Shown here piece after piece: positions 2,368 to 20,563 of a DNA stretch of 27,620 bases. The position numbers and the translations under genes are program-made. How positions within the stretch are numbered: position 1 is the stretch's first letter; the number at the start of each line of letters is the position of its first letter. Origin of the DNA: a virus (taxonomy: Duplodnaviria; Heunggongvirae; Uroviricota; Caudoviricetes); IMG/VR virus record IMGVR_UViG_2506381017_000002. One strand, given 5' to 3'. The notes under the pieces are model-generated. The model did no database searches, was not told the origin of the DNA, and worked only from the letters and a program-made list of their open reading frames with translations.

Positions 2368-2399
2368 TTGACCAAGGACACTCTTCTTGGTTGTACATA
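2368..2399 (+). promoter_or_regulatory. Hairpin + GTACATA element, copy 2
   Basis: TTGACCAAGGA-CACTC-TTCTTGGTT-GTACATA; intergenic once the next gene is started at TTG 2431. Confidence 0.6.
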
Positions 2400-2430
2400 T
2401 CAAAGAATAAAAAGAAAGGAGCTGAATTGG

Positions 2431-4062: not shown

Positions 4063-4079
4063 TAAAGAGGTGAGAGTTT

Positions 4080-5120
4080 TTGATTATAGGTGTCGATTAT
4101 TTTAATTATGGATTTGACCAACAATTTTATGATACTCCTATTCCAACTTCTGAGATTGACGAGGTTATGATGGGGGCCGGAATGTATGATGAAATGTTCA
4201 TTAGTGTGGATACAACTTTAGATGATTCACAAACCAAACCAGCTCAATGGAATCTGAAAACTATTATGGACGCTAAGTTCAATAATTCTCTTGAAGCTGG
4301 GAGTATTGACGGAGCTGGTCATATTGTCACCAAAATACAATGTTATCGTCGAGAATACATGAGCACGAATACGGATTGGCAATTAGTAGCGCAATTTGAT
4401 TATGATGACCATTATAACCTTTATACGGTAGTTGATAGATTCATTGAAAATGGCAAAACATATGAATATGCAGTTGTTCCATTAGCCAATGAAATTCAAG
4501 GTGACTTACAAGTTGGCCCACCAATTGATAGCAAGTTTTATGGCTCCTTTATTTCTAATCTAGGTTCGAATTATTCAATGAACATCGACTTCAAGTTCTC
4601 GGATTTAGTTTGGAATTCTAACACGAGTACCAGTGTGCCGCTTAATGGTCAATATCCAATAGTGACGTTTGGAAATGCAAACTATCGAACTGGTACAGTT
4701 TCGTTCTTACCACTTACTCCGCAACAAGAATTTGGTTATGAAAACGAAATTGATCCACACGCCGAATACATTAATAGAACTAATGTTATTGACTTCCTTA
4801 ATGATGGACAAACAAAGGTAATTCGTCGTGAAGATGGAGATATTATTGTTTGTGCAACACATAATATTAAAACTACTCCGAAAGATGAAAGTCTTGAAGC
4901 TATTTCTACGGTAACATTTGATTTCACTGAAATAGGTAAATTAGATTACAACACCATGGAAAAAGCGGGATTAATTGCTGATGCAGGTAAATCTGTCTAC
5001 ACATACGATGAAGATGGGAATATTAAGTGGAATCAGGAATATATTGCTGAAGATGGTTCTATTCAATCTAGAACTAGATATAGAAATTCATTCTTATATG
5101 AACGAGACAATTTAAAGTAA
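4080..5120 (+). CDS. Tail-tip / distal-tail-type structural protein
   Basis: TTG start with GAGGTG SD; FN3-like 'VVDRFIENGKTYEYAVVP'; synteny within the tail module. Confidence 0.6.
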   Translation: MIIGVDYFNYGFDQQFYDTPIPTSEIDEVMMGAGMYDEMFISVDTTLDDSQTKPAQWNLKTIMDAKFNNSLEAGSIDGAGHIVTKIQCYRREYMSTNTDWQLVAQFDYDDHYNLYTVVDRFIENGKTYEYAVVPLANEIQGDLQVGPPIDSKFYGSFISNLGSNYSMNIDFKFSDLVWNSNTSTSVPLNGQYPIVTFGNANYRTGTVSFLPLTPQQEFGYENEIDPHAEYINRTNVIDFLNDGQTKVIRREDGDIIVCATHNIKTTPKDESLEAISTVTFDFTEIGKLDYNTMEKAGLIADAGKSVYTYDEDGNIKWNQEYIAEDGSIQSRTRYRNSFLYERDNLK

Positions 5121-5132
5121 GAGGGATAAAGT

Positions 5133-7229
5133 ATGCCACTGAAATACAAAAAGCCCAATTACAATGAAACGTTATCGAATATTGTAAATGGACTTGAAGA
5201 AAAAGTAAGTGGTCGAGCAGCAAGTGTTTTACGACAACCAATTCGCAACCTTCAAACAACTATTCAAGTGTTGGATAATGATGGCTCCATAATTGATACT
5301 ATTACTGGAAAAACAACTGGTGGAACTATTAATTATGATGCAACTTCATTGATACGACGAACGGGAACTTTGAAGATGGTTGTTGATCCTTCATATATGC
5401 CAAACAACAAAAGTGTTTTTTGGTTCGATAAGAAGTTTAGAGTCTATCAAGGAGTTGTTGATTTATCTCGTTTCCCCAGAGAGGCAGTTAACTTTTTGCT
5501 AGGAACGTTTTGGGTTAACGAATCCTCTCTACGTTTTGATAAAACAACACGTGAAATATCAGTTACATTAGCTGACAAAATGACCTTATGGGACGGCCAA
5601 GGACTAGAAAATAAACTCAAAATAAAGCGTGGAACTCCTATGAGTGATGCTATTAGGGGAATCATGGAATTAGTGGGAGAAACAGATTTTGGGTATATGT
5701 ACACCAGTAATGGTGAAGAAATACTTCAGTACGATTACGAAAAGGAACCGGGAACTTCAATCAATGATATCATTGAAGACTTTCGTGATATGTACATGGA
5801 TTTTATCTGTGGATATAATTCTCTTGGTCAATTTGAGTATCGGAAGTTGCCTATTCAAAAGGAAGAAGAAATTCCTAAGCCTAAATGGGAATTTGATGCA
5901 ACTTCACAAGATAGAGCAGATCTCACCTTATCATTTCAAGAAAGCTACGACTTAAAGAATGTTAAGAACAGATTTGTTGTTATTGGGTCCACATCAACCA
6001 AAACAGGCTATACACCTAAAGGTTCAGTAAAAATTACTGATACAAATAGCGAGTTTAATATAGATGCTATCGGAACTAGAACAAAAGTTATCCAAAATAG
6101 TGATCTAACAAATGATCTACAGTGTGTATCTCAAGCACGATATGAAATGTGGAAAGCTGCACACTTCCAAGAAAAAGTAAGCATTGATGTTTCTCCAGTT
6201 TACTTCTTGCAACCCAATGATATTATTCTGGTCACCAATCCTGTAACAAAAAAAGTATATCAGTACATGATTGATACTATTCAAATTGACTTAGCTGTCG
6301 ATGGAATTATGTCAATTGACGCTCATAAAATGTACTTTGTTAAGCCGGATTATGGTGAGGCAGATATGCCAATTGTGGCGGCTATCAAAAATGGTATCAA
6401 TAAATTAGGCTGGTTGTCACTTCCAGAAGAAAGAATTAAGGATACGTATGGTATTTCCGCCGATGGAAAGAATTACTTGAGTATACGATTCGTCGTTGAT
6501 GAAGAAGGTGGATGGCAAGCAGAAACAACTGCGTATAACACTTCCAGAAATCAAACACTAGAAATCGACCTTCGAGATTTTGAAAAGCTCAATCTTAAGG
6601 ATGAAAATGGTGACGTTGGTAGATCTAAAGGTGATTATGCAGATCGTGTACTCGGACATGAAATGTTTCATGCAGTATGTAACGATTTCTATGGTGCTGT
6701 TAAAACGATGGATATGCCTGTGTGGTTCAAAGAAGGCTTTGCGGAATTGCTTCATGGTGGAAAAGATCGTTATGTAACGATAACGGGATTTGAAAACAGG
6801 GAAGCTAAGAAGCAAGCATTAATTAAGCGAGCTAGAAACCAACTAAACGGAACATGGGAGAGTACATCAGATGACTATGTAGCCGCGTATCTTATTGCTT
6901 GTGCTATGTATTATTTGGCTGGAGACTTAAAAGGTATTCATGACATGTTTCAGCGACTAGAAAAAGAAAGTAACTTAAATTTGAACTTTCTGTACAAAGC
7001 ATTACCTATTACTGAATCGGCAGGTCAAATCTTCGATAAGGTAATTGATGAAATGCAAAAGATGCCAATTTGGGATTTCTTAAATGACCCCACAGATGTA
7101 GACACATGTTCTATTGGTGGAAATCATATGCTTAATCTATATGGCAGACCGCTTAGTCCAGAAGATGTGTTTAACAATCAGACGGCAACAACTGATTCAT
7201 TAGGATTCAAAATTAAGTTTGACGAGTAG
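5133..7229 (+). CDS. Tail hub/endopeptidase-like protein fused to a C-terminal flagellinolysin-like zinc metallopeptidase (gluzincin)
   Basis: N-terminal ~400 aa resembles phage tail-hub proteins (TRT-type 'RRTGTL', 'LADKM', 'GYNSLGQFEY'); C-terminal domain has H509-EMF-H513 plus E534 in 'PVWFKEGFAELLHGG'. Confidence 0.75.
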   Translation: MPLKYKKPNYNETLSNIVNGLEEKVSGRAASVLRQPIRNLQTTIQVLDNDGSIIDTITGKTTGGTINYDATSLIRRTGTLKMVVDPSYMPNNKSVFWFDKKFRVYQGVVDLSRFPREAVNFLLGTFWVNESSLRFDKTTREISVTLADKMTLWDGQGLENKLKIKRGTPMSDAIRGIMELVGETDFGYMYTSNGEEILQYDYEKEPGTSINDIIEDFRDMYMDFICGYNSLGQFEYRKLPIQKEEEIPKPKWEFDATSQDRADLTLSFQESYDLKNVKNRFVVIGSTSTKTGYTPKGSVKITDTNSEFNIDAIGTRTKVIQNSDLTNDLQCVSQARYEMWKAAHFQEKVSIDVSPVYFLQPNDIILVTNPVTKKVYQYMIDTIQIDLAVDGIMSIDAHKMYFVKPDYGEADMPIVAAIKNGINKLGWLSLPEERIKDTYGISADGKNYLSIRFVVDEEGGWQAETTAYNTSRNQTLEIDLRDFEKLNLKDENGDVGRSKGDYADRVLGHEMFHAVCNDFYGAVKTMDMPVWFKEGFAELLHGGKDRYVTITGFENREAKKQALIKRARNQLNGTWESTSDDYVAAYLIACAMYYLAGDLKGIHDMFQRLEKESNLNLNFLYKALPITESAGQIFDKVIDEMQKMPIWDFLNDPTDVDTCSIGGNHMLNLYGRPLSPEDVFNNQTATTDSLGFKIKFDE

Positions 7230-7276
7230 ATTTTATTGAGGAGGACATTAATACATATGAGAGGAAGTTGTATTAA

Positions 7277-8011
7277 ATGTCGAGATCTACTTTTCCGCAA
7301 AAGATAGATGTATTTAGAGAATTATTTGATCTTCCGGCAAATCAAGTTGCAAATGCACTAGAATTGCAGAGATTAAAACAAAAGACAACACTAACAAATG
7401 ATGAACAAAACCAAATTTCCGCATTAAGCGCCCAACTACAAGATTATATGATTACGCCTGAAACCATGAATAAACTTCAGGACGCAATTGTAGAAATCGA
7501 AACATTCTTTGATGGGAATGTAAGAAAGTACATCCTTGAAAAGCAGAAAGAATGGGATACCTATGTCAATGATTTTGATTATATAGGCGAATGGGACGCA
7601 ACGAAGAAATTTAAGAAACATAATCTTATAACATATCAAGGTGCATTATATATTGTTACAAAAGATGTGGTAGCGGATAGGCAACATACACCAGATAATG
7701 ATTCCGATCATTATCGGCCTGCATCTAGTAAGGGTGACAAAGGTGATATAGGATTAAATGCTATTTTTAAGGGTGAATGGAATGGAGCAACTAGCTATAA
7801 GGCTGGTGATGCCGTGTCTGTTCGTGAAGGTCAAAGTTGGCGCCCATTAGATTTAGTATTTATTGCTAAAAAAGATAATCAAGGTCAAAAGCCAACAATA
7901 GGCGCTGCAAGCGATTATTGGTTCCCATATCATAATTTAATTGTTGTTCCTAAAGAATATGCTAACTATAAATTTCATCCAGATATTCATCGAATCCAGA
8001 TAGTTGATTAG
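7277..8011 (+). CDS. Baseplate/tail-fibre adaptor with two short carbohydrate-binding-like beta repeats
   Basis: 'YIGEWDATKKFKKHNLITYQGALY' and 'FKGEWNGATSYKAGDAV' repeats; 'MSRSTFP..ID.F' N-terminus recalled from large Firmicutes phage tail genes. Confidence 0.55.
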   Translation: MSRSTFPQKIDVFRELFDLPANQVANALELQRLKQKTTLTNDEQNQISALSAQLQDYMITPETMNKLQDAIVEIETFFDGNVRKYILEKQKEWDTYVNDFDYIGEWDATKKFKKHNLITYQGALYIVTKDVVADRQHTPDNDSDHYRPASSKGDKGDIGLNAIFKGEWNGATSYKAGDAVSVREGQSWRPLDLVFIAKKDNQGQKPTIGAASDYWFPYHNLIVVPKEYANYKFHPDIHRIQIVD

Positions 8012-8021
8012 AGGTGGGAGA

Positions 8022-8411
8022 ATGGAAGTTAGCGAACAACAAAAAGGATTATTAGAAGCCATGCGAACAATAGCTCAGCATGAAGCACAACGTAATTCAG
8101 GACCACAGTTTCAAACAGGTGTCGTGGTGGAAGATCCTGCTGGATATAAATGTATTGTCAGAGTGAATGATACCGAAAAAACATGTACTTTGCCAGAACA
8201 TTTGCATGATTGGGTAAGCAAAGACGATATAGTTCAAATTTGCGATATGTATGGAAATGGTGCTGAGCTAATTGTCACTGGATCTTCTGGATCAACAAGA
8301 AAGAAAACATTGGTTGTTAACGATGAAGATAAAGATAAGTTAACTGGTGGCGTTACTAAATTTGCAGATGATAGTGGAAATTTAACCGATAATACACTAA
8401 CGCTAGAGTAG
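8022..8411 (+). CDS. Small structural protein, OB-fold-like
   Basis: Start revised to ATG 8022 (GAGGTGGGAG upstream), giving 129 aa; 'TGVVVEDPAGYKCIVRVN...VSKDDIVQI' beta pattern; synteny. Confidence 0.5.
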   Translation: MEVSEQQKGLLEAMRTIAQHEAQRNSGPQFQTGVVVEDPAGYKCIVRVNDTEKTCTLPEHLHDWVSKDDIVQICDMYGNGAELIVTGSSGSTRKKTLVVNDEDKDKLTGGVTKFADDSGNLTDNTLTLE

Positions 8412-8425
8412 AGAGAAGGTATTAA

Positions 8426-9781
8426 ATGGCTGTAAAGAGAGCAAAATATTTAGTTGCAGATGATGAATATCATTTCGTAACGGACGACAAGGCTCTTAGA
8501 GTCCTAGATTCAAATAATAATGAAATTGGAACGTTTAGAGAATTAGGCTTTGAGGGAAAGCTAATCACAAGCGGTGATTATAGAGACATAAAACATACTG
8601 GAGTATACCGAATCAAAGGAGTAGGAGGTTTACCCGGAAACATTCCAGGAGACAAGGAATCCATTCTGACAGTTACATCGATTGGTGATCAGGGTAATCC
8701 AGAATTAACCTTTTATAAGGTAATTAGTCCTAACGGAGTAATTTTAGAAAATACTGTCTCACGGAGTAATCAGTCTGGATGGGGATCTGGTGGTGTTGAT
8801 TTACGAAATACCATTACAAGTATTAACAATATTATTGGTGATATTTCAAAACTTCAGACAGATTCCAAGAATATGACTGGGGCAATTAATGAGTTAAATT
8901 CCAAAATAAATAATGTATCTGGCAACTCGCAAAGTGGGTTGGAAGACTTAAAAAAAGATAGTAACAATAGATATTTGTTCAAATGGGGAGATACAGTCAA
9001 CGGTGACCTTTCAGTTAAGTTTGGGGCAAAATACAAACTTCGAGGTAAGAATGGTCACGACTACAATTTAGCTTCTATTGACGATAACAATAATATCCAT
9101 ATTGGCGATGCAGATACCAATTTACAGTTTTGGGGTAATGATAATCCTACTTTTAATGGTAAAAAGATATTCACAGAAGCTAATGTAGGTAGTGGATCGG
9201 GGTTAGATGCTGATAAGCTTGATGGAATTGATAGTTCAGGTTTCTTAAAGACTAATAGCGATGATACTAAATATAGTGGTCTTCGCATGGATAAACGGAA
9301 CATTCACTTCAATATCAAAGATGGCGAAAATACAGAAACAGGCTTAGTTTTTGATAAGAATAATAAGTGGACTGCTAAAGTTGTTGCAACCGATATTGGT
9401 GATGTCCATATTCAAACAGGTGGTAAAGAGTATAAATATCCTCCATTTACGTTCAATCAAGATCGTAATTTTGTTCAATATGGTGGTATGCACGTTATTC
9501 GAGCCAATGAGCCACAAATTAATTTTCAGACATTTGATGAAAAAACTGGAAACTTTGATAAAGGAGTAGGGTTTTTCAAGCCAACATGGGATCAAGGATC
9601 ATTAGCTGTTGGTAACTGGAATACTAGTGAGGTTGTTGCGCAATTTGCCGTTGGTACTAATCATGAAGCGGTTAAGCTCAATCATTCTCCTTATATTGGT
9701 GATCATAATAGACGGTTATTCTTGCAAGACGAACAGCCTAGTGGTGACGTTCCTGTTGGATCAGTTTGGATTGGTATTTAG
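8426..9781 (+). CDS. Tail fibre / receptor-binding protein
   Basis: Knob-like 'DYRDIKHTGVYRI', 'LQTDSKNMTGAINEL' and 'GSGSGLDADKLDGIDSSGF' fibre motifs; C-terminal 'QPSGDVPVGSVWI'. Confidence 0.7.
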   Translation: MAVKRAKYLVADDEYHFVTDDKALRVLDSNNNEIGTFRELGFEGKLITSGDYRDIKHTGVYRIKGVGGLPGNIPGDKESILTVTSIGDQGNPELTFYKVISPNGVILENTVSRSNQSGWGSGGVDLRNTITSINNIIGDISKLQTDSKNMTGAINELNSKINNVSGNSQSGLEDLKKDSNNRYLFKWGDTVNGDLSVKFGAKYKLRGKNGHDYNLASIDDNNNIHIGDADTNLQFWGNDNPTFNGKKIFTEANVGSGSGLDADKLDGIDSSGFLKTNSDDTKYSGLRMDKRNIHFNIKDGENTETGLVFDKNNKWTAKVVATDIGDVHIQTGGKEYKYPPFTFNQDRNFVQYGGMHVIRANEPQINFQTFDEKTGNFDKGVGFFKPTWDQGSLAVGNWNTSEVVAQFAVGTNHEAVKLNHSPYIGDHNRRLFLQDEQPSGDVPVGSVWIGI

Positions 9782-9794
9782 GAGGTGATTGTGG

Positions 9795-10466
9795 ATGCCA
9801 TTTGTAAAATATAGAGGAGCCAATGGTGAATGGATAAAGCTTGGTGGAGGTAATGTTCGTGTGTCTAATGGACATACGTGGATTCCTCCACGTGCAAGAA
9901 TATGGAATGGTCATGAGTGGTTGAACCTACTGGAGGAGCGTAAAATTACGACCTGGGAATGCACTGGTGTACAGTCGTTTTGGTCGTGGGGAGCCGCTAA
10001 AGGATGGTCAGCTTTAGTTAGACCAGACCGTCCAACGCAAGGTTGCTACCGTCCGTACCATGACTCCTACGATTGGGGAGATGAAAGCGCTCAAGTCTAC
10101 TTTGACTGGGGTAATATTCAAAATACACTTCGAGGAGCCAAAATAGATAAAGTCGAAATTTATATGCATTGTCTTCACTCTATGAATTATAACGGGGGAC
10201 AAGGAGTATTCGGACTCCACAATGCACCGGGTTGGCAATCTAAGTATTCTGAAACCAATTTCGGAGTTGCTCGCGCATGGTATAGCAGAAGAGACCAGGG
10301 ACAATGGATAACACTTCCAAATTGGGTTGGAGATAACTTTAGAGACGGTAGTGTTAAAGGAATTACATGTCGCGCCGGAGATACATCTGGAGTTAGATAT
10401 TTATGGTATGCAGGCTCAGCAGACGGTTGGAAAAAACCTAAGATTCGAATTACTTATTTAAAATAA
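9795..10466 (+). CDS. Putative receptor-binding / fibre-tip protein
   Basis: GGAGGTG SD with ATG 9795 as the likely start; Trp/Gly-rich beta domain ending 'PKIRITYLK', as seen in siphophage tail-tip domains. Confidence 0.55.
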   Translation: MPFVKYRGANGEWIKLGGGNVRVSNGHTWIPPRARIWNGHEWLNLLEERKITTWECTGVQSFWSWGAAKGWSALVRPDRPTQGCYRPYHDSYDWGDESAQVYFDWGNIQNTLRGAKIDKVEIYMHCLHSMNYNGGQGVFGLHNAPGWQSKYSETNFGVARAWYSRRDQGQWITLPNWVGDNFRDGSVKGITCRAGDTSGVRYLWYAGSADGWKKPKIRITYLK

Positions 10467-10546: not shown

Positions 10547-12055
10547 ATGGGAAAAAGACGAACACCTGAACAGTATGTTGAAGATGTTAAAGCGATACAT
10601 GGCGAAAAATATACAATTACTACACCTTTCATCAATATGAAGACAAAAGTAATGGTTTTATGTAATGATTGTGGTCATGAATGGTTAGTAGAGCCAAGCA
10701 GTCTCTTGAAAGGTTATGGTTGTCGCAAATGTGGTATACAAAATAGAAAACCTCGAAAAACAAATGACGAATTCTGTTCTCAAGTAAAGAATTTATGGGG
10801 AAATGAATATGTGTTTCTAGATAACTATGTTAATGCAACAACCAAAATTAGGTGTCTTCATTCTATATGTGGCACTATTTGGAAGGTTACTCCTAAGAGT
10901 TTTCTTCATAATAAAAAGGGTGGTTGTCCAACTTGTGCTTATGGTAAATCTCAGCAAGAATTCACAAAAGAAATAAAGAATCTAGTTGGGGACGAATATT
11001 CTTTCATAGAAACGTATATAGGAGACGGTTCTAAAATCCTATGTCGTCACAATATTTGTGGATATGAATGGAAAACTAAACCCAACACATTCTTAAATGG
11101 AAGTAGGTGTCCAAACTGCTTCGGTTCAAAAAGAAAAAGCACAATTCAATTTCAAAATGAGCTCGATCAACTTTATCCGGGAGAGTATGAAGTTTTAGGT
11201 GAATATAAAACTGCACATACCAAAATAAAGGTTCGTCATGTTCCCTGCGACTATACCTGGGAGATTAAGCCTAATGCAATATTGATTAAAAAGAGATGTC
11301 CGAGGTGTTCTATGCGAAAACAAGTTGTACGACAAACTAGACCGTATGACGATTTTGTGCGAGAGGTACATCAAAAATATGGCAACGCTTATATTGTAGA
11401 TAATTATCAAGGGCGTCATAAAAAACTTAAGGTGACTCATAAAGAATGTGGTTATTTATGGGAAACATATGGAAGTACTTTGCTCTCGGGCGTTGGGTGC
11501 CCTCGTTGTGCAGGCATCATAAAAACATCAGACGACTTTATAGCTCAGTTATCGGCATTGGTAGGGAGGGAGTATAGAGTAGTAGGCGAGTATTCAAAGA
11601 TGAGTGAAAAAGTAAAAATAAAACACGAAAAATGTGGTTATTTATGGCAAGTTACTCCGATGAATTTTATACGTGGAACCAGATGTCCAAGATGTAGAAA
11701 ATCCCACGGGGAATTAGCTATTGAAGCTTGGCTAAATAGTAAAAACTATGGCTATATTCCTCAGAAGAAATTTGCAGACTGTAAAGATCAGCGTTCACTC
11801 CCATTTGATTTTTATCTTCCCGATTATAATTTGGTCATTGAGTATGATGGAAGACAGCATTTTCAGAGTTGCGATTATTTTGGTGGAGAGGAAAAATTTA
11901 ATCTCCAACACAAACATGATTTAATCAAAAACAAATACTGCGAAGATAATAATATTAATCTATTACGTATTCCGTACACTGTTACCGGAGAAGATATCGG
12001 CAGGGCAATTCAGAACAGATTAGATGAATTAACACAACTCGATAACGTTGCTTAA
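10547..12055 (+). CDS. Free-standing endonuclease: six Zn-ribbon repeats + Vsr/DUF559-like PD-(D/E)XK domain (homing endonuclease-like)
   Basis: Six ~62-70 aa repeats with (H/C)xxC-G-x-x-W...CxxC; C-terminal 'LPFDFYLPDYNLVIEYDGRQH'. Confidence 0.8.
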   Translation: MGKRRTPEQYVEDVKAIHGEKYTITTPFINMKTKVMVLCNDCGHEWLVEPSSLLKGYGCRKCGIQNRKPRKTNDEFCSQVKNLWGNEYVFLDNYVNATTKIRCLHSICGTIWKVTPKSFLHNKKGGCPTCAYGKSQQEFTKEIKNLVGDEYSFIETYIGDGSKILCRHNICGYEWKTKPNTFLNGSRCPNCFGSKRKSTIQFQNELDQLYPGEYEVLGEYKTAHTKIKVRHVPCDYTWEIKPNAILIKKRCPRCSMRKQVVRQTRPYDDFVREVHQKYGNAYIVDNYQGRHKKLKVTHKECGYLWETYGSTLLSGVGCPRCAGIIKTSDDFIAQLSALVGREYRVVGEYSKMSEKVKIKHEKCGYLWQVTPMNFIRGTRCPRCRKSHGELAIEAWLNSKNYGYIPQKKFADCKDQRSLPFDFYLPDYNLVIEYDGRQHFQSCDYFGGEEKFNLQHKHDLIKNKYCEDNNINLLRIPYTVTGEDIGRAIQNRLDELTQLDNVA

Positions 12056-12125
12056 AATTAAATACTAGTTTTTAAGGAGGAAATTTATTAAGGAGGCAAA
12101 TAATTATCCGAAGGGAGCAATTAAT

Positions 12126-13424
12126 TTGCTTAATAAATTTCTAAAGAAGATGTTAATGGTAGCAGTAACTATCATTATGGTTGCCCCTGTATTAGCAGGG
12201 GTCGCAAGTGCCGATGGAAGATCATATGGACCAGACCTATCCAAATATCAAGGTGCATATGCCAGCAAGCCGTATACGCGTGACCAATTCGCAATTGCAC
12301 AAGTTGGTGGATACGTAAATGGTTATTTCTATGACCAATGGACATATCCAACACAAATTAGTTCAGGTATTGCTAATGGGTTGAGAATGCACACTTATAT
12401 TTGGTATCAAGTTGGTGGAAATGCTCAATTGGGGAAGCAGGTTGTAGATCATTTTCTACCAAAGATCCAAGCGCCTAAGGGGTCGATCATTGCATTAGAT
12501 TATGAAGATGGAGCATCTTGGGACAAGAATGCTAACACAGAAGCCATTTTAGCAGGTATGCGTGAAATTAAGGCGGCAGGATACGTTCCAATGTATTACA
12601 GTTATAAGCCGTACACCTTGGCTCACGTTGACTATAATCGTATTATTGCTGAATTCCCTAACTCTGGATGGATTGCAGCATACCCAGATTACAATGTTCG
12701 TACAGAACCATACTGGGGTGTATTCCCTTCACTTCCAGGAATTAGTATCTACCAATTTACAAGCACATATCGTGCTGGTGGTTTAGACGGTAATATTTCA
12801 TTAGCACCTAATGGTCATGACATTACTATGAGCGGTTACGTCAATGGGAATTCACAAAAGCCAAAGACCGAAACTCCTGCAACGGAACAAGGTAAGCAAA
12901 TTCATAAAGATACTCATAACTACACTGTAAAGCCAAATGATAGCTGGTGGGCAATAGCAAATCGTTATGGCATGGAAATGAACGCTTTAGCACAACTGAA
13001 TGGCAAGACCATCAATGATGTAATTCACCCAGGTCAAGTTATTCGTGTTGCTGATAAAGGAGATGGTCAATCTGTTTCAAACAAGGTTAACACCACCCCC
13101 GCACAACCATCAAATAATACTCAATACTACACTGTACAACCAAATGATACGCTCTCAGGTATCGCTACAAAATTTGGGACAACATATCAATCAATCGCAT
13201 TCCTTAACAGAATTGATAATCCAAATTGGATTTATCCTGGTCAGCGACTAAAAATTAATAGGGCGACTCAAAATAACAGTTCTAACAGAGTACACTATGT
13301 GCGTTACGGTGAAACACTAAGCGGCTTGAGTTATTCTCTTGGAGTTAATTACCAGACACTGTTAAGCAAAAATAATATAGCTAATCCTAATTTTATTCGT
13401 GTAGGTCAGGCCATTTACTACTAA
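12126..13424 (+). CDS. Endolysin: signal peptide + GH25 muramidase + 3 LysM
   Basis: TTG start with GGGAG SD; KK + hydrophobic stretch + 'ASA|D' cleavage motif; GH25 motifs 'PDLSKYQG', 'ALDYEDG', 'GLDGN'; three LysM repeats (YTVKPNDSWWAIA, YTVQPNDTLSGIA, HYVRYGETLSGLS). Confidence 0.92.
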   Translation: MLNKFLKKMLMVAVTIIMVAPVLAGVASADGRSYGPDLSKYQGAYASKPYTRDQFAIAQVGGYVNGYFYDQWTYPTQISSGIANGLRMHTYIWYQVGGNAQLGKQVVDHFLPKIQAPKGSIIALDYEDGASWDKNANTEAILAGMREIKAAGYVPMYYSYKPYTLAHVDYNRIIAEFPNSGWIAAYPDYNVRTEPYWGVFPSLPGISIYQFTSTYRAGGLDGNISLAPNGHDITMSGYVNGNSQKPKTETPATEQGKQIHKDTHNYTVKPNDSWWAIANRYGMEMNALAQLNGKTINDVIHPGQVIRVADKGDGQSVSNKVNTTPAQPSNNTQYYTVQPNDTLSGIATKFGTTYQSIAFLNRIDNPNWIYPGQRLKINRATQNNSSNRVHYVRYGETLSGLSYSLGVNYQTLLSKNNIANPNFIRVGQAIYY

Positions 13425-13446
13425 AAGAGATACAAGGAGGAAATTA

Positions 13447-14247
13447 ATGAAAGAAATTTGGAAAGATATAGAAGAATTTGAGGGATATTATCAAATCTCT
13501 AATTTGGGACAAGTTAAAAGTATGGATAGAGATGTTATTTATAGCAATGGGGTTATTCGACATTACGAAGAAAGAATTAGGACCCCAGTAACAGATAAGA
13601 ATGGATATTTGATGGTAACGTTAAATAAAAGTTCTAAAAGTTATCCTAAAAGAGTACATCAGCTTGTTGCCAGAGCGTTTATTCCCAATCCAGATAATTT
13701 ACCATCAATTAATCATATTGACGAAGATAAGACAAACAATCGAGTGGATAATTTAGAATGGTGTTCGGTTTACTATAACAATCATTATAATGGTAGATAT
13801 GAACGAATAAAGCGCTATCCCAAGTCGGTTTGCTTGTTTAATGTTGTAAATGGTGAGGTAATAAAAATCGAGTCTATATCTGAGGCTGCTCGTAGGCTGC
13901 ACGGGTCCGCCGGAAATATTGAAGAAGTGATAGATGCAAAAGGAAGGACTTTTAAGGGGTGGATGATATTTTCTGAACGCAATTTTAATGGCTTAGCTAT
14001 TAAACAGAGTTTGGAGGAATATAATAAACATCGCCCTAGGGGTATTGTCGTTGAATTTATTGACACCGAAGATAAAAGGTTCTATGCGACCGAAAATGAA
14101 TTCTGTCACGAATATAATGAGCATCCAGGTAGCATAAACACGTATTTAAGAAATAACAGAGATGTATTCAAAAATAAATACGTTATACGATACGCTCTCC
14201 CATTTGAGGAGTCTAAATATCAAAATGGGCAGTTGCTAGATTATTGA
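13447..14247 (+). CDS. NUMOD4-HNH homing endonuclease
   Basis: NUMOD4 'EIWKDIEEFEGYYQISNLGQVKS'; HNH 'VHQLVARAF...INHIDEDKTNNRVDNLEWC'; NUMOD1-like 'SISEAARRL'. Confidence 0.9.
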   Translation: MKEIWKDIEEFEGYYQISNLGQVKSMDRDVIYSNGVIRHYEERIRTPVTDKNGYLMVTLNKSSKSYPKRVHQLVARAFIPNPDNLPSINHIDEDKTNNRVDNLEWCSVYYNNHYNGRYERIKRYPKSVCLFNVVNGEVIKIESISEAARRLHGSAGNIEEVIDAKGRTFKGWMIFSERNFNGLAIKQSLEEYNKHRPRGIVVEFIDTEDKRFYATENEFCHEYNEHPGSINTYLRNNRDVFKNKYVIRYALPFEESKYQNGQLLDY

Positions 14248-14282
14248 TCTGGGTCGGCCAAAGAATCGCCGCATAACATATT

Positions 14283-14351
14283 TTTATAAAACATGGGTTT
14301 TATAAACTTTAGGGAATGTGTAGACTCAATGTCTACGCATTTTCATACATA
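14283..14351 (+). promoter_or_regulatory. Two tandem hairpins followed by ATACATA upstream of the fibre-levanase gene
   Basis: TTTATAAAAC-ATGG-GTTTTATAAA (perfect 10 bp) and GAATGTGTAGAC-TCAAT-GTCTACGCATTT, then ATACATA (14345-14351). Confidence 0.5.
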
Positions 14352-14424
14352 AATATATTTATACTAATCCACCGATTGGTAATTAAGGAGGAAAAATTAA
14401 TTACTCATGAGGTGAAATAAAGAT

Positions 14425-17400
14425 ATGAGATATTTAACAACATATCTTGACGATGAAATTAATTTCAAGTTTGGCAATAATGGCTCAATCATTGAGTTGA
14501 AAGCTGTTGATGACCATGCGGTTATGAGTTTCTCAAACGAAGAAAAACTCCTCATTCGTATTAAGAATGAGGAATCATATATCAAAACGGTGCCCGTTAC
14601 TGCCGAACGTAAGATTATTCAACTCCCTACCAAGTTATTAAAAGACCTAACGGTAGGTCAGTACGATGTTGAGTTATGGCAAGGCGAAGGTGACGATCAA
14701 GTTATCTATCCTGACGAAGGATTCCTTAGATTAAAGATTCATGGCAACGCATCACAAATTGATGGTAGCTTGGTTTCTTCTATTACTCTTGCTGATTTTG
14801 AAAAGAAGTTTAATGAACTAGCTCAAAAGATTGAGGATAAATTAGAGAAATTACCAGATATCGATGGGAAGAATATTAGCATCGATGTGAAAGTAGTTGA
14901 TGGCAACCTTTGTATTAACGGCAAAGATACAGGAATTAACCTAACTGCCAAGGATGGTAGGGACGGAAGAGATGGACATACGCCAGAAATCACTGTATCA
15001 GATGCAGGTACACTTGTTGTTGATGGAATTGACACTAATAAATCTTTAATCGGTCCTAGAGGTGAGAATGGACTTCCGGGTAAGGATGGAGTTGCTGGTC
15101 AAGATGGTAAATCTGCCTATCAAGTAGCTGTCGATAATGGGTTTGATGGGACAGAAGTCGAATGGTTACGCTCATTGCATGGAAATGATGGCCTTGATGG
15201 AAAGTCAGGTAGAGACGGACTTCCAGGACAGAGTGGTAAATCTGCCTATGAGATAGCTATCGCAAACGGGTTTATGGGAACTGAAACTGAATGGCTAGAA
15301 TCCCTCAAAGGTAAGGATGGGCGAGATGGTAATGACGCTAATGTCGATTTATCTGAATTCTTAACTAAAGAAACTGCGAATTCAGAATATGCTAAAAAGA
15401 ATGATGTTCCTCTTATCGTATATGATGCAGAAAACAATACTCTAACTATCAATGGTCAAAAGGTAGAAATACCTTCTCAAGTAGATTTGTCTAGTTATGT
15501 TACCAAGACTGATGCAGATAAATATGCTTTAAAATCTGATGTAAAGAATATTGTCCTTGATAAAAATGAAAGAACTTTAACTGTTGGAAAAGAATCAATT
15601 AATATTCCTAATAATATTGACCTTTCTCCTTATTACACTAAAGAAGAAATTGATAAGAAGTTAACTGACATTGCGACAAATGGAAAGGTTGACCTTACTG
15701 GTTATCTTAGACAGAGTGATTTAACGGATTACGCTAAGAAATCAGATATCCCAAGTCAACCAGACCTTACTCCATATGCTAAAAAGTCAGAGCTACCCAA
15801 GATTTCAATAGACGTTGAGAAACGAACGCTTACTTTAAACGATAGTGTTATCAATATTCCAGATAGTGTTGACTTAACTGACTATGCTAAAAAATCAGAA
15901 ATTCCAAGTATCGTATTAGACACGGAAACTAATACCCTAACCATTAACGGAACAAAAGTAGTTATTCCAGGTAATGTTGACCTCACTCATTACTACACTA
16001 AAGGAGAAATTGATGAAAAAATAGCTGATATTCAATCTGGCGGAAAAATTGATTTAAGTAATTATGTCAATAAGCAAGAACTTTCTGATTATGCTAAGAA
16101 AGCAGATATTCCTGAAACGCCTGACTTAACTCCTTATGAGACTAAAGAGAATGCAGATAAGACTTATGCTACTAAGAAAGCGTTGGAAGATATTCAACTC
16201 ACTCCCGGAAAAGATGGGAAGAATGGTAAGTCTGCTTATGATTTGGCGGTAGAAGCTGGTTTTGAGGGTAGCGTAGACGAATGGTTACAATCACTACATG
16301 GAGCCAATGGTAAAGATGGCCGAGACGGAGCTAATGGTCATGATGGAGCCAAAGGTCAGGACGGACAAAACGGTAAGAGTGCCTATGAGATCGCCATTGC
16401 TAATGGTTTTAAAGGAACGGAAGAAGAATGGCTCAATTCTCTTAAAGGTCGTGATGGTTCCAATGGAGCCTCTGGACGAAACGGGGCTGATGGAAAGAAC
16501 GGAGTAGACGGATTAAGCGCTTATGAATTAGCTAAAAAGAACGGATTCCAAGGAACTGAGCAAGAATGGTTAGGTTCACTTAAAGGTGAACAAGGACATG
16601 ATGGTATTCAGGGCCCTAAAGGAGATGCTGGTGAAAGAGGCCCACAAGGGTTCCCGGGGAAGGATGGATCAGATGGTAAGGATGGCGCTCAAGGGCCAGC
16701 TGGGGCTAACGGAAAAGATGGTCAATCCACATACCAATTATGGCTATCCAAAGGAAATACTGGTAGCGAAGAGGACTTCTTAAACTCTCTTAAGGGTGCT
16801 AAAGGAGACCAAGGTGCCCCTGGTAAAGATGGTGCTCCTGGGGTTAAAGGTGATACCGGAGAAAGAGGGCCTCAAGGGGAACGTGGAGAAACTGGTTTAC
16901 AAGGTCCTGCTGGTCCTAAAGGAGATATTGGTAATGTTGGCCCACAAGGCCCTAAAGGAGATAAAGGTGATACAGGTCCACAAGGACCTAAAGGGAATAC
17001 AGGGGATCGAGGTCCACAAGGTGTAGCAGGAAAAGATGGTCATTCTGTTTGGTATAATAGAATGCACTATAGTCCTAACGGACAACTACAGTGGTTTACA
17101 GATTTGACTAACGCAAGTGCTTCTAACCCACCTAAAGTTAATGATATTATGATTAATGCTGACGGTAATATTGCAATGATTACTAAGGTCAATATTACTA
17201 ATGATGCAGGTGAAGGTGGAGGAACGTTTAACTATGGTCCTTGGATTGGTAACATCAAGGGTCCCACTGGCCCTCAAGGTCCACAAGGATTAAATGGGAA
17301 AGATGGACTTTCAGCTTATGAGATTGCTAAACGAAATGGATTCACTGGAACTGAAAAAGAATGGTCGGACTCTTTACAGAATCAAAGTTTTAATAAAACG

Positions 17401-18852
17401 ACTATAAATAAAATATTTGATAAATACTCAAATAAGTTTCATATCAATATGCCAGATAATGGTTTCCTAAATGATGTGCAAGGGGCATTCTATCGCAATG
17501 GTATATGGCATATGTATTTCCTGTATAATGCTGACGCAAAATATAACTCAAATGGCGACCAAATAGGTGGAAATGGAACTGAATGGTACCATGTTACCAC
17601 GAAAGATTGGGTGAAATGGAATTATGAAGGTGTCGCAATTCATAAATACAAAACCGCCTGGGGAGACGTTGCTTCTGGAACTATTTATATTGATTTTGAT
17701 AATCGTTTTGGCAAAGGTAAAGACGCAGTTATTGTATTTGCTACAGCCTATGGCGGTGACAAGGGTCAGAATGTAATGGGGTATTACTCAACAGATAACG
17801 GTTACACATTTAGTCCATTGCAGACAGATCCAATTCTTCGACATGTCGGTGGATCAGATACCAATTTCAGAGATCCATACTTATTTAGAATGGGAGATAC
17901 ATGGGTTATATACATGGCTGAGGGAGATAAATTTGGAATTTATACTTCAAACAATCCTCTGTCTGGATATAACTATATTGATGGCTATTTTGCGCCACAC
18001 GCATTGTTAGAATGTCCATCGCTGTTTAAGTTAAATGTAAATGGAAATCAAAATAATCAAAAATGGGTATTATTCTATGGGGGTAATGGTGGAGATGATG
18101 CTACTACGGGAACTTATGCTTCTGTAGGGTATTTAACAGATAAATATGCATTCAAAGCTGAGCAGGAAAATATTCGTGTTGATTATGGTCCCGATTTTTA
18201 CGGTGCAAAAATGTTTTCAAATGAATTTGGCAATAATGATTTCGTATATAGCAATGCATGGATGGGTAATTGGGGATATGCTACCAAAGTTCCAAATGAG
18301 GGCAGAATTGGGGCGATATCTTCAACAAGAAAGATAACATTGAGGCATGACGGAGTAAAGTATTGTTTAAATAATGAAATTGTCGGAGTATTTCCTGATT
18401 ACCTTGATAATCCGATTGTGGGTACAAATCTAAAAACTAATACAGGGCTACCTATGTTTAAAGGCGACAGTTTTTATTTGAAATTTAGAATTAAAGATGT
18501 TCAAAATTTAAATGAAAACATGACGATTAAATTAGTTGGGAATCAATACGATTCTGATATGTTGTTTAACTTTAAGGATAATAATGTTAAAGTTCATCGA
18601 TATAATAGCTCTTTTAATAATAATATCTATGGTAGAGACAGAATATTTAGCACCAATCTTGATAAAGAAAATGATTTGTGGATTGAATTGCTTGTTGACC
18701 GAACTTGTATAGAAATGCGCTTATCTAATGGCGATATTTTTACAATGACAAAATTCCCTGCTGGACGGAGTAGAGAAAATATATGTGTTAGCGCAGATAA
18801 CACAGTCAATTTCGATTATGAATATTATCAAATAATGCCACAAGAGGTGTAG
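14425..18852 (+). CDS. Collagen-like fibre with BppU-like N-terminus and C-terminal GH32 levanase (LevB-like)
   Basis: N-terminal 'YDVELWQG..DQVIYPDEGF' BppU_N-like motif; G-X-Y runs; GH32 motifs ND1017VQ, RD1150P, E1196CP; segments 'GNGTEW', 'EGVAI.KY', 'YSTD.G..F', 'MAEG.K' match B. subtilis LevB as recalled. Confidence 0.85.
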   Translation: MRYLTTYLDDEINFKFGNNGSIIELKAVDDHAVMSFSNEEKLLIRIKNEESYIKTVPVTAERKIIQLPTKLLKDLTVGQYDVELWQGEGDDQVIYPDEGFLRLKIHGNASQIDGSLVSSITLADFEKKFNELAQKIEDKLEKLPDIDGKNISIDVKVVDGNLCINGKDTGINLTAKDGRDGRDGHTPEITVSDAGTLVVDGIDTNKSLIGPRGENGLPGKDGVAGQDGKSAYQVAVDNGFDGTEVEWLRSLHGNDGLDGKSGRDGLPGQSGKSAYEIAIANGFMGTETEWLESLKGKDGRDGNDANVDLSEFLTKETANSEYAKKNDVPLIVYDAENNTLTINGQKVEIPSQVDLSSYVTKTDADKYALKSDVKNIVLDKNERTLTVGKESINIPNNIDLSPYYTKEEIDKKLTDIATNGKVDLTGYLRQSDLTDYAKKSDIPSQPDLTPYAKKSELPKISIDVEKRTLTLNDSVINIPDSVDLTDYAKKSEIPSIVLDTETNTLTINGTKVVIPGNVDLTHYYTKGEIDEKIADIQSGGKIDLSNYVNKQELSDYAKKADIPETPDLTPYETKENADKTYATKKALEDIQLTPGKDGKNGKSAYDLAVEAGFEGSVDEWLQSLHGANGKDGRDGANGHDGAKGQDGQNGKSAYEIAIANGFKGTEEEWLNSLKGRDGSNGASGRNGADGKNGVDGLSAYELAKKNGFQGTEQEWLGSLKGEQGHDGIQGPKGDAGERGPQGFPGKDGSDGKDGAQGPAGANGKDGQSTYQLWLSKGNTGSEEDFLNSLKGAKGDQGAPGKDGAPGVKGDTGERGPQGERGETGLQGPAGPKGDIGNVGPQGPKGDKGDTGPQGPKGNTGDRGPQGVAGKDGHSVWYNRMHYSPNGQLQWFTDLTNASASNPPKVNDIMINADGNIAMITKVNITNDAGEGGGTFNYGPWIGNIKGPTGPQGPQGLNGKDGLSAYEIAKRNGFTGTEKEWSDSLQNQSFNKTTINKIFDKYSNKFHINMPDNGFLNDVQGAFYRNGIWHMYFLYNADAKYNSNGDQIGGNGTEWYHVTTKDWVKWNYEGVAIHKYKTAWGDVASGTIYIDFDNRFGKGKDAVIVFATAYGGDKGQNVMGYYSTDNGYTFSPLQTDPILRHVGGSDTNFRDPYLFRMGDTWVIYMAEGDKFGIYTSNNPLSGYNYIDGYFAPHALLECPSLFKLNVNGNQNNQKWVLFYGGNGGDDATTGTYASVGYLTDKYAFKAEQENIRVDYGPDFYGAKMFSNEFGNNDFVYSNAWMGNWGYATKVPNEGRIGAISSTRKITLRHDGVKYCLNNEIVGVFPDYLDNPIVGTNLKTNTGLPMFKGDSFYLKFRIKDVQNLNENMTIKLVGNQYDSDMLFNFKDNNVKVHRYNSSFNNNIYGRDRIFSTNLDKENDLWIELLVDRTCIEMRLSNGDIFTMTKFPAGRSRENICVSADNTVNFDYEYYQIMPQEV
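15106..17379 (+). repeat. Seven copies of a ~26-aa 'G(K/L/Q)SAY..A..NGF.GTE.EWL.SL.G' module interleaved with collagen G-X-Y tracts
   Basis: Counted in the translation; longest uninterrupted collagen run is 27 triplets at 16795-17040. Confidence 0.85.
15343..16190 (+). repeat. Tandemly duplicated 'LTING..V.IP..VDL..Y.TK / DLT.YAKKSDIP' shaft modules
   Basis: Four '(I/V).D....LT(I/V/L)...I.IP..(V/I)DL' units and two 'YYTK.EID.K..DI...GK.DL..Y' units in the translation. Confidence 0.75.
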
Positions 18853-18856
18853 ATAA

Positions 18857-19039
18857 ATGTCAAAAATAGTATATAAATTAAATACTGAAAATGTATATAT
18901 TTCTGCAAGATAGGTTGAAGATACAAATTCTAAGGTTGTAATTAACGGTGCTGCCAATAATAATTGGGTTATTTACAGTACGGAAGGGTTAGCATTCCAA
19001 GATGGTGGAAACCAATCGAATAAAAATATAGGTATTTAA
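18857..19039 (+). pseudogene. 60-codon ORF interrupted by one in-frame TAG (18911-18913)
   Basis: GAGGTG SD then ATG 18857: MSKIVYKLNTENVYISAR*VEDTNSKVVINGAANNNWVIYSTEGLAFQDGGNQSNKNIGI-TAA; fills the gap exactly up to the terminator. Confidence 0.5.
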
Positions 19040-19046
19040 TAATTTT

Positions 19047-19083
19047 AAACAGTCTTTCTTTACAGGGGGCTGTTTTTATTTTA
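19047..19083 (+). terminator. Rho-independent terminator ending the late/fibre unit
   Basis: AAACAGTCTT...GGGGCTGTTT stem with G-U pairs followed by TTATTTTA. Confidence 0.7.
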
Positions 19084-19202
19084 TTCAGACGGTTTACAGC
19101 GAAAATTACCGTCAACTATATGGTATAAAAAATATATTCTCAATAAATAAAATTTTTATTTAGAAATTTATTGCCATTTGGTAATAAATCAGGAAAGGAT
19201 GT

Positions 19203-19385
19203 TTGAAAATGCTCAAACAATCTTTAATTAAAATTTTCGAGAAAGTAATGGGATATATAGTTGATTACAGTATAGTTATTCTTTATTTGGCAACAATTTG
19301 TTTGATTTGGAAAGCCTTTAATATTCATCCGTTTGTCACTCTTCCAGTCATGGCATATGTAATGAAGTACTTTATAAAATCTTAG
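19203..19385 (+). CDS. Small membrane protein (1-2 TM)
   Basis: AAAGGA SD; start TTG 19203 or ATG 19209; hydrophobic YSIVILYLATICLIW and PFVTLPVMAYVM; has its own terminator. Confidence 0.6.
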   Translation: MKMLKQSLIKIFEKVMGYIVDYSIVILYLATICLIWKAFNIHPFVTLPVMAYVMKYFIKS

Positions 19386-19391
19386 TTTTAT

Positions 19392-19424
19392 AAAACGCTC
19401 AGAAGAGATTCTGGGCGTTTTTTT
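19392..19424 (+). terminator. Rho-independent terminator
   Basis: AAAACGCTCAGAA-GAGA-TTCTGGGCGTTTT followed by TTT. Confidence 0.85.
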
Positions 19425-19457
19425 GCTTAAAAAATTGTTACCGATAGATGCAATTCT

Positions 19458-19487
19458 GTGACTCGCCTACACGGTTTTTGATATAGT
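19458..19487 (+). promoter_or_regulatory. Putative sigmaA promoter of the replication operon
   Basis: GTGACT-18-TATAGT with an extended -10 TG (19479-19480). Confidence 0.35.
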
Positions 19488-19513
19488 AACGAAGGTGAAA
19501 GGGGTTAGAAAGC

Positions 19514-20563
19514 TTGCAAGCAAAGGAATTAAAGGAATACATACTAGCTGATACAAAGAGACTTTACATAATTTTACGCAATGCTGGATTTCATGATTTC
19601 CGGGAGCGAGCCGAAGAAATTAGGTGCGCCTTGCCTAACTACACTAATCCTACGGGTGTCATGATTAAACTAAATAATTCATTGAATACATCGCTATTTG
19701 AATTGGGGTATTCCGGGGATATTTTGGGAGCCCTAGGCGTTGTTCTTGAAAAACAATTTTATGAAGTGATGAGTTATATTCATAGCCTATTGGGTTTGTC
19801 CAGCAATCATGTTGCCAACTCATTTGATCCATTGGCGACTTTAAAAAAGTTGTCGAAAAACTCTAATACTCAACATCGTCGGATAACAAATAATAAGTTA
19901 TACGATAAAGGGGTTTTAAATAAATTTGTCAACGGAATTCATGCATCGGTAATTGAGGAAGGAATTTCCCCGGATATTGCTAGGCGTTTTGATGTTATGT
20001 ACGACCCACACTTAGATAGAGTTGTTTTCCCACACTATGACTGGAATGAATTTGACAAAGTTGTGGGTATTCAAGGGCGCTCAACTATGTCTAAGGCCGA
20101 ACTTGAATTAACAGGGACGCCAAAGTATCTGAATTACATTAAGGATTATTACAAGCTATTAAATCTGTATGGATATAATCAGGCTTATCAAAATATTAAT
20201 GATCATAAAAGGATAATCTTATTTGAGGCTGAAAAGTCAGTATTAAAGGAGTTTACTTTAAGCCGAGGAGATGGGGTGTCAGTTGCCTTAGGTGGACATT
20301 CAATTAGCGAGCAGCAAGTTGATTTTATTCTACGCAAGTTACCTGTCGATGGGGAAGTAATTATTGCATTTGATCATGACGTAATGACTAAGGAACAAGA
20401 GGGAGAAGAATATATTTTGAGTCAAGCTAAGAAGTTCTCTCCGTTCCGCAAAACAAGTTATATATTTGATAGTTACAATATTTTGGGCGAAAAAGACTCG
20501 CCAATAGATAAGGGTAAAGTGATTTGGGATCACTTATTGAAATGGAGGAAATTTATCAGTTGA
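19514..20563 (+). CDS. dnaG: DnaG-type DNA primase (TOPRIM)
   Basis: 'RVVFP..D..VVGIQGR', 'PKYLN', TOPRIM 'ILFEAEKSVL...VALGG...IIAFDHD'; the N-terminal Zn finger looks degenerate. Confidence 0.85.
   Translation: MQAKELKEYILADTKRLYIILRNAGFHDFRERAEEIRCALPNYTNPTGVMIKLNNSLNTSLFELGYSGDILGALGVVLEKQFYEVMSYIHSLLGLSSNHVANSFDPLATLKKLSKNSNTQHRRITNNKLYDKGVLNKFVNGIHASVIEEGISPDIARRFDVMYDPHLDRVVFPHYDWNEFDKVVGIQGRSTMSKAELELTGTPKYLNYIKDYYKLLNLYGYNQAYQNINDHKRIILFEAEKSVLKEFTLSRGDGVSVALGGHSISEQQVDFILRKLPVDGEVIIAFDHDVMTKEQEGEEYILSQAKKFSPFRKTSYIFDSYNILGEKDSPIDKGKVIWDHLLKWRKFIS

Follow-up and report, generated by a model that had tools for sequence, protein, structure and literature searches.

Virion-borne depolymerases against capsules and O-antigens are a familiar class, nearly all of them, to our knowledge, β-helix tailspikes. 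Capsule depolymerase tailspikes occur on Klebsiella phages, and the streptococcal prophage protein HylP is a hyaluronidase that bears a collagen motif. Those phage levanases of which we found published descriptions are free enzymes encoded by Bacillus phages: LevP of phage phiNIT1 and the levanase of SP-10 belong to glycoside hydrolase family 32 (GH32), combine a β-propeller with a β-sandwich, are presumed to degrade host levan (PMC4595243, PMC6966330) and were reported not to be parts of the virion (PMC6966330). FibU (gp68) of phage 80alpha, a collagen-like fibre, is a proven peripheral and non-essential component of the baseplate, encoded apart from the baseplate genes and beside the lysis genes (PMC7048315). 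Here we describe a gene in a 27,620-nucleotide stretch of a tailed phage (IMG/VR record IMGVR_UViG_2506381017_000002; the whole stretch is called the window below) whose product carries features of each of these systems. The open reading frame (ORF) at 14425-18852 (+ strand, as are all parts of the gene given below) is open over 1,475 amino acids and is the sole long frame at that place; it encodes an N-terminal anchor domain, a long stalk with collagen-like segments and a C-terminal GH32 head. The identity, fold and catalytic triad of the head, together with an anchor from a tail-fibre family, favor a virion-displayed fructan depolymerase on a stalk, and the alternative heads found in sister phages and the recurrence of the architecture strengthen that reading, which the original prediction had proposed. 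We consider it the best-supported explanation and fairly probable, on a basis made up entirely of sequence, fold, synteny and comparison. The individual parts (phage GH32, collagen-like fibre, baseplate-type anchor) are known; we found neither their combination nor any fibre-tethered GH32 enzyme reported in the open-access literature.

The GH32 head

By sequence and by model, the GH32 head is complete and intact. Its five-bladed β-propeller catalytic domain (amino acids 997-1312; 17413-18360) was assigned from Pfam, alignment and model, with Glyco_hydro_32N (PF00251) matching amino acids 1009-1312 (E 3e-43), which places the protein in GH32, and the PHROGs label for amino acids 998-1446 was 'levanase'. 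The C-terminal β-sandwich (amino acids 1313-1475 plus stop codon; 18361-18852) gave a weak Pfam match, Glyco_hydro_32C (PF08244) scoring 19.5 bits at amino acids 1338-1442, under the 21.9 cut-off, and was assigned by its fold, since structural alignments of about 490-540 columns take it in. The AlphaFold model of amino acids 985-1475 (predicted local distance difference test, pLDDT, 90.1; predicted template-modelling score, pTM, 0.90) matched GH32 structures over both propeller and sandwich with template-modelling (TM) scores of 0.80-0.83. The nearest solved sequence was that of the Bacillus licheniformis endolevanase LevB1 (PDB 9h8i; E 2e-41), on whose catalytic residues D1017 (motif NDxxG; codon 17473-17475), D1150 (RDP; 17872-17874) and E1196 (EC; 18010-18012) align, and all 35 aligned homologs, down to 28% identity, keep the three residues unchanged. 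The triad and the two-domain module on which the original prediction was built were thus confirmed by Pfam, by the LevB1 alignment, by the homologs and by the model, and cleavage of fructan by the head is probable on these predictions. Its description as LevB-like fared less well: LevB1 shares the catalytic motifs but is only the nearest solved sequence, 24% identical in the structural alignment; it is secreted by its bacterium and has no fibre part. The Bacillus-phage levanases lie across a long branch of the tree described below.

Exchange of heads within collagen-coding DNA

At the DNA level the fibre gene is a mosaic of three pieces, and the joints between them lie in Gly-X-Y-coding repeats. 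The nearest bacterial genome compared (G001) carries a sister phage (L007 14493-19832) whose corresponding locus has three genes, encoding an 868-amino-acid fibre, a 103-amino-acid ORF product and an 806-amino-acid protein. Positions 14425-16907 of the window are 98.6% identical in DNA to the gene of the 868-amino-acid fibre (the protein being 99% identical to amino acids 1-834 of ours), positions 16884-17288 match the collagen-knob part of the gene of the 806-amino-acid fibre with 97.3% identity, and positions 17295-18928 are 94.9% identical to the GH32 cassette of phages from Limosilactobacillus caviae and from Logan assemblies. The first joint (16884-16907; amino acids ~820-828) falls in collagen-coding DNA beside 36-nucleotide tandem repeats, which occupy 16915-17021 of the distal collagen-coding DNA, and the second (17288-17295) likewise falls in collagen-coding DNA. 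The G001 record looks like a concatenation of coding sequences, the ORFs at G001:C1:268000-300000 (L007, L008) abutting with no intergenic bases and the phage genes running into dNK and an amino-acid permease, so that its gene order and spacing are not to be trusted.

The 806-amino-acid protein of the sister phage consists of a short N-terminal piece of its own, collagen, two knobs and a C-terminal β-helix homologous to family GH91 inulin fructotransferases that form difructose anhydride III (DFA-III; 9j4i, E 6e-29; 2inu, E 3e-26). It ends in a duplicated segment of about 40 amino acids. A trace of the same head is present in the window, directly behind the intact gene. Positions 18857-19039 (+) hold what deletion has left of a second fibre gene of the GH91 type, namely an 18-codon N-terminal piece that resembles the start of the GH91 gene, an in-frame TAG at codon 19 and the last β-helix turn, the peptide SKVVINGAANNNWV(I/V)YS being common to the remnant and the GH91 β-helix. 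The L. caviae relative has this ORF intact, with 90 amino acids (L009 12825-13097), and by comparison the remnant is short by about 30 codons. In two further relatives (P0047 and P0048) GH32 is followed by a GH91-type β-helix in a single chain, and in another (P0045; 1,667 amino acids) an SGNH esterase accompanies GH32. Sequence comparison thus identifies the head as an exchangeable cassette, with the collagen-coding repeats acting as recombination joints.

GH91 enzymes are, like GH32, fructan-active, but they are trimeric β-helix proteins with a lyase-like transferase reaction; the trimeric right-handed β-helix that characterizes tailspike catalytic domains is absent from the GH32 head and would be present in the GH91 head of the sister phage. 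Two unrelated folds whose sole common trait is action on β-fructans therefore occur on one fibre, in place of or next to one another, which points to fructan as the target, and we regard this exchange as the strongest indirect evidence for that target.

The same evidence bears on whether the head cleaves its ligand or mainly holds it. It could serve chiefly as a receptor-binding lectin, a reversible tether to cell-bound fructan as primary receptor, with catalysis slow or incidental; FibL and FibU of 80alpha were proposed to mediate low-affinity reversible binding (PMC7048315), a cell-wall-bound host fructansucrase would make fructan a mark of the cell surface, and the tail module encodes other candidate adhesins, such as the CBM_5_12 protein at 7277-8011. 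The invariance of the catalytic residues over the 35 homologs argues instead for selection on catalysis, the alternative GH91 and SGNH heads are enzymes too, and binding and cleavage are compatible with one another, as in tailspikes. We consider a predominantly lectin-like head unlikely.

A source of fructan exists in the host genus. GH68 fructansucrases scored over the Pfam cut-off in 21 of the 61 genomes of the genus, including that of the sister-phage carrier (G001). The levansucrase FtfA of L. reuteri is bound to the cell wall (PMC3458588), and the biofilm of the mouse forestomach is enriched in GH68 transcripts that are most similar to the L. reuteri inulosucrase (PMC4241727). That two thirds of these genomes gave no such match leaves room for the proposal that the fibre is directed at dietary fructans or at those of other gut bacteria, positioning or moving the phage amid fructan-rich digesta or in a mixed biofilm, or releasing sugars locally. 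The phage occurs in the mouse gut, where plant fructans and the levan of other bacteria are found, and one member of the enzyme clade (P0050) is fused to mucus-binding MucB2 domains. However, the G001 genome with its sister phage does encode GH68, and depolymerase fibres normally fit the glycan of their own host, as is general knowledge for tailspikes; we judge a non-host target to be quite unlikely.

Anchor domain and stalk

The anchor (amino acids 1-145; 14425-14859) was delimited from its match to phrog_4440 'tail fiber protein' (E 5e-31) and from its predicted structure, in which amino acids 1-110 have pLDDT >90. Strands between amino acids 2 and 106 form an immunoglobulin (Ig)-like β-sandwich (amino acids 1-106) and an α-helix (amino acids 122-141) leads into the stalk, the arrangement found in anchors of the BppU and FibU type. 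A search of 1.8 billion representatives yielded 294 homologs of the domain (E ≤0.001), mostly N-terminal in proteins of very diverse length; in small siphophages of Lactobacillus and Leuconostoc they are annotated as tail fibres, and in phage CL1 the gene of the homolog lies between holin genes. Virion proteomics for this family was not found in the open-access literature. No hydrophobic, signal-like stretch was seen at the N-terminus when the translation was read directly, in agreement with the predicted absence of a signal peptide.

The top structural matches of the anchor model were BppU of phage TP901-1 (4v96_AA; Z 9.7), the baseplate fibre of 80alpha (6v8i_AK; Z 8.9; root-mean-square deviation 3.2 over 105 residues) and a baseplate protein of NF5 (9m8o_Q; Z 8.4). 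Pfam BppU_N was absent at E up to 1 for the protein and at E 0.01 for 47 members of the anchor family, a PDB profile search with the anchor came back empty, and hhalign against TP901-1 ORF48 (BppU) returned a probability of 0.3%, a weak test because the target is a single sequence. The BppU-like attachment domain of the original prediction is therefore a statement about fold only. TP901-1 BppU likewise begins with an Ig-like domain followed by a helix, but it carries a receptor-binding protein in place of a glycosidase; FibU shares an N-terminal Ig-like domain, a helix and a collagen-like fibre with our protein, but it has 390 amino acids and no enzyme, and neither shows detectable sequence or profile similarity to the anchor.

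The layout of anchor, collagen and GH32 recurs in two further proteins (P0049 and P0002) whose anchors are 16-18% identical to that of the window (hhalign probability 98.8 and 97.7), indicating that the anchor-stalk-GH32 architecture is old and has been maintained. Four proteins of the same phage group (P0006, P0008, P0048 and P0005; L023 and relatives) have collagen and GH32 without the Ig-like anchor and start with a short conserved peptide, …PKITIGKVR.SSADGP….

The stalk is long and repetitive, as predicted, but spans about 780 amino acids rather than about 870 and is mixed in composition, true collagen repeat making up only about a third of it. The Collagen family (PF01391) matched with E 1.7e-26, a hyaluronoglucosaminidase chain (6x3m) matched the collagen part, and 81 Gly-X-Y triplets were counted in seven uninterrupted runs of 6-28. 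A 24-residue knuckle, SAYEIAIxNGFxGTExEWLxSLKG, occurs in six to seven copies, always behind a collagen run. The proximal collagen-like segment (amino acids 210-296; 15052-15312) has two runs of seven triplets, each followed by a knuckle. It leads into a non-collagen repeat shaft (amino acids 297-602; 15313-16230; phrog_30808, E 2.8e-17) with about ten repeats of the DLSxY/AKKSD type at amino acids 308-590, and then into the distal collagen-like segment (amino acids 603-874; 16231-17046), with four knuckles and runs of 9, 8, 16 and 28 triplets. A 70-residue knob with collagen on both sides (amino acids 875-945; 17047-17259) is 92% identical to the knob present in two copies in the GH91 fibre of the sister phage; the region (amino acids 868-950) matched no PHROG, and the Atlas returned look-alikes of its collagen flanks and a weak lead, PF19079 CFSR 'collagen-flanked surface repeat', at 0.88. 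The last run, of six triplets, with a variant knuckle (amino acids 946-986; 17260-17382), holds the second mosaic joint. The collagen parts by themselves would measure roughly 70 nm if each residue adds the standard rise of about 0.29 nm, and the chemistry of the Gly-X-Y repeats suggests that the chains are trimeric.

Gene neighborhood

The window is a block of genes in a single strand orientation from a large phage. It opens with the 3' end of the tape-measure gene (2-1717; 3,036 amino acids in the copy of a relative), followed by tail-tip genes (2368-10466), an HNH endonuclease gene (10547-12055), a GH25-LysM endolysin (12126-13424), a second HNH gene (13447-14247) and the fibre gene, downstream of which lie genes for primase, exonuclease, DNA polymerase III alpha and ligase. 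The fibre gene is thus on the same strand as, and last in the series of, tape-measure, tail-tip and endolysin genes, and a terminator-like hairpin with a T-run behind it (19047-19085, +) closes the tail-lysis-fibre block. A Shine-Dalgarno-like GAGGTG (14409-14414, +) lies 10 nucleotides 5' of the ATG at 14425, and two relatives (P0044 and P0045) start at the same methionine.

Although the gene does lie outside the tail module in position, as had been noted, its place after the endolysin is no anomaly: it is conserved in the phage lineage and is normal for accessory fibres, as with FibU, encoded beside the lysis genes, and with the anchor homolog of CL1. A collagen-GH32 gene right after the endolysin was also found in a 123-kb contig of an L. 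caviae assembly and in several metagenome contigs, and the GH32 domains of relatives with the same gene order are 62-96% identical to that of the window. Six related loci were found in IMG/VR, and megablast of the fibre gene against 50,697 phage records, a set that may lack the record of the window itself, gave no match.

This position bears on whether the protein is part of the virion at all. It might instead be a late-expressed soluble enzyme, freed at lysis like LevP and PghP of phiNIT1, that clears fructan near neighboring cells, the collagen serving only to trimerise it; the known phage levanases are free enzymes (PMC6966330), and our gene stands behind the endolysin and not among the tail-tip genes. 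A soluble enzyme would, however, have no need of a 145-residue N-terminal domain of a tail-fibre family and a stalk of about 780 residues, and the Bacillus enzymes, of about 480 amino acids, do without both. A Leuconostoc homolog is encoded between Dit and baseplate genes, and FibU is a baseplate fibre despite being encoded beside lysis genes. We regard a soluble enzyme as very improbable.

The intact frame, the conserved catalytic residues and the independent assemblies speak against a pseudogene or a chimera of assembly, and we rejected both readings. A 99.9% identical 1,475-amino-acid protein (P0043) is present in independent Logan assemblies, and mouse-gut metagenome runs of at least five studies contain the full 16900-18852 stretch as exact DNA, so that the long frame is no assembly artefact; contigs from one of four mouse-gut runs were placed on the window and span 14381-16507 only, with the joints outside, and the reality of the mosaic joints rests on P0043 and on word-index presence in the metagenome runs.

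Several further features surround the gene. The 177-nucleotide spacer 5' of it is 92.5% conserved in L009, the L. caviae relative. It contains, at 14318-14351, a hairpin (GTAGAC-TCAAT-GTCTAC) with CATACATA behind it, which loosely resembles hairpin-GTACATA elements at 1725-1753 and 2372-2399; the hairpin-linked motif TTTCATACATA was no more frequent in the window than expected by chance. A sigma-70 promoter scan of 12000-19600 gave fewer sites than shuffled controls and none that was convincing in the spacer. The two HNH genes flank the endolysin and look like mobile homing-endonuclease insertions; L009 has neither, and L010 and L011 have an ORF at the first site only. Between the fibre block and the replication genes, a 60-amino-acid hydrophobic ORF (19203-19385) is followed by a strong terminator with a 13-bp stem (19392-19421). 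The tail-hub protein (698 amino acids; 5133-7229) has an HEMFH zinc-protease motif at amino acid 509 and a weak Peptidase_M9 match; its pairing with the fibre as a two-enzyme kit for penetrating biofilm, as once suggested, is speculation.

Origin of the fibre-linked GH32 clade

All homologs down to about 44% identity have a phage-fibre-type N-terminus, either collagen or a typical fibre start. In a Leuconostoc mesenteroides prophage, a 577-amino-acid GH32 protein of the clade, 56% identical to ours, is encoded directly after Dit and before the baseplate genes. A quick maximum-likelihood tree placed the 22 rows with fibre-linked enzymes in one group (SH-like approximate likelihood ratio test, SH-aLRT, 86), sister to two Spiroplasma lipoprotein levanases (support 96), and a branch of 1.56 substitutions (SH-aLRT 100) separated this clade from the group of LevP, the SP-10 levanase and Priestia; rooting was at the midpoint, the branches of the Spiroplasma rows are long, several labels derive from N-terminal sequence only, and LevB1 was not included. 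LevP and the SP-10 levanase thus fall outside the clade, and they also differ from our protein in being about 30% identical to it, about 480 amino acids long, stand-alone and soluble, with genes placed among small non-structural ones, whereas the window protein has an anchor and a stalk.

A search of the 61 host-genus genomes with a threshold of E 1e-30 found no fibre-type GH32; the result does not prove absence, and it fits the statement of a review that lactobacilli lack extracellular fructan hydrolases (PMC3458588). With a clade of its own, phage-fibre N-termini down to about 44% identity and no member found in those genomes, acquisition from a bacterial levanase, the origin first proposed, is not supported, nor is a recent capture from a levanase of the host, and transfer may have run in either direction. 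A metagenomic protein of 1,447 amino acids (P0050) fuses a GH32 of the fibre clade to C-terminal MucB2 mucus-binding domains and has an N-terminus that is not phage-like; this protein could be a surface fructanase of a bacterium that descends from the phage clade, or descent could have run the other way.

Discussion

A virion-displayed fructan depolymerase would work as follows. The gene product would be an accessory tail fibre at the baseplate periphery of a large phage or phage-plasmid that has a long tail and whose hosts are Limosilactobacillus of the mouse gut. Three chains would trimerise through their collagen-like segments, and the resulting fibre would hold three GH32 heads some tens of nanometres off the tail. 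The heads would bind and hydrolyse β-fructan (levan and/or inulin) made from sucrose by the cell-wall-bound GH68 fructansucrase of the host, and the virion would then work its way through the fructan layer or biofilm matrix to a receptor on the cell wall. Tailspike and fibre depolymerases and HylP share this plan, in which an adaptor to the virion at the N-terminus is followed by a trimeric stalk and by an enzyme for a host-surface polymer, but tailspikes catalyse with a trimeric β-helix, whereas here a normally monomeric GH32 propeller would sit on a long, segmented collagen stalk.

Several points weigh against this explanation. GH32 enzymes are normally monomers, and here three propellers would be mounted on one triple helix. 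Both presence in the virion and activity are predictions from sequence and model, and the fibre model names no docking partner. The Z-scores of the anchor against baseplate proteins exceed those against generic Ig folds (Z ~7) by only about 2 units, sequence-level homology to BppU did not appear in the Pfam, PDB-profile or hhalign comparison, and one sub-lineage (P0006, P0008 and P0048) has collagen and GH32 with no Ig-like anchor. Structures of endo-levanase, exo-inulinase, invertase, endo-inulinase and levan fructotransferase fit the head model about equally, which confirms the family but means that specificity (levan or inulin, endo or exo) is not readable from sequence or fold. The GH68 status, finally, was read from G001 and the genomes of the genus and not from the window's own host.

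If the depolymerase assignment is true, a fibre-tethered GH32 propeller, from a clade found across phages of lactic acid bacteria and exchangeable with a GH91 head, would widen the repertoire of virion-borne depolymerases and take phage levanases beyond free Bacillus-phage enzymes, and fructan extracellular polysaccharide would emerge as a surface layer of lactobacilli from gut and food that matters to phages. The locus also offers a clean natural case of collagen-coding repeats as joints for module swapping, and fibre-mounted fructanases might find practical use against fructan biofilms or in the production of fructo-oligosaccharides. More broadly, and only as a tentative proposal that we would not yet expect to hold, phages that infect lactic acid bacteria able to make fructan (Limosilactobacillus, Leuconostoc and others) might share an undescribed 'fructan toolkit' of collagen-jointed fibres, with GH32, GH91 and SGNH esterase heads swapped within Gly-X-Y-coding DNA and the sucrose-derived fructan coat acting as first receptor or barrier. 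The fibre offers a link between dietary sucrose, biofilm matrix and phage susceptibility that is testable in the L. reuteri mouse model and, were such a toolkit to exist, how heavily phages prey on lactobacilli of the gut would hinge on sucrose in the diet.

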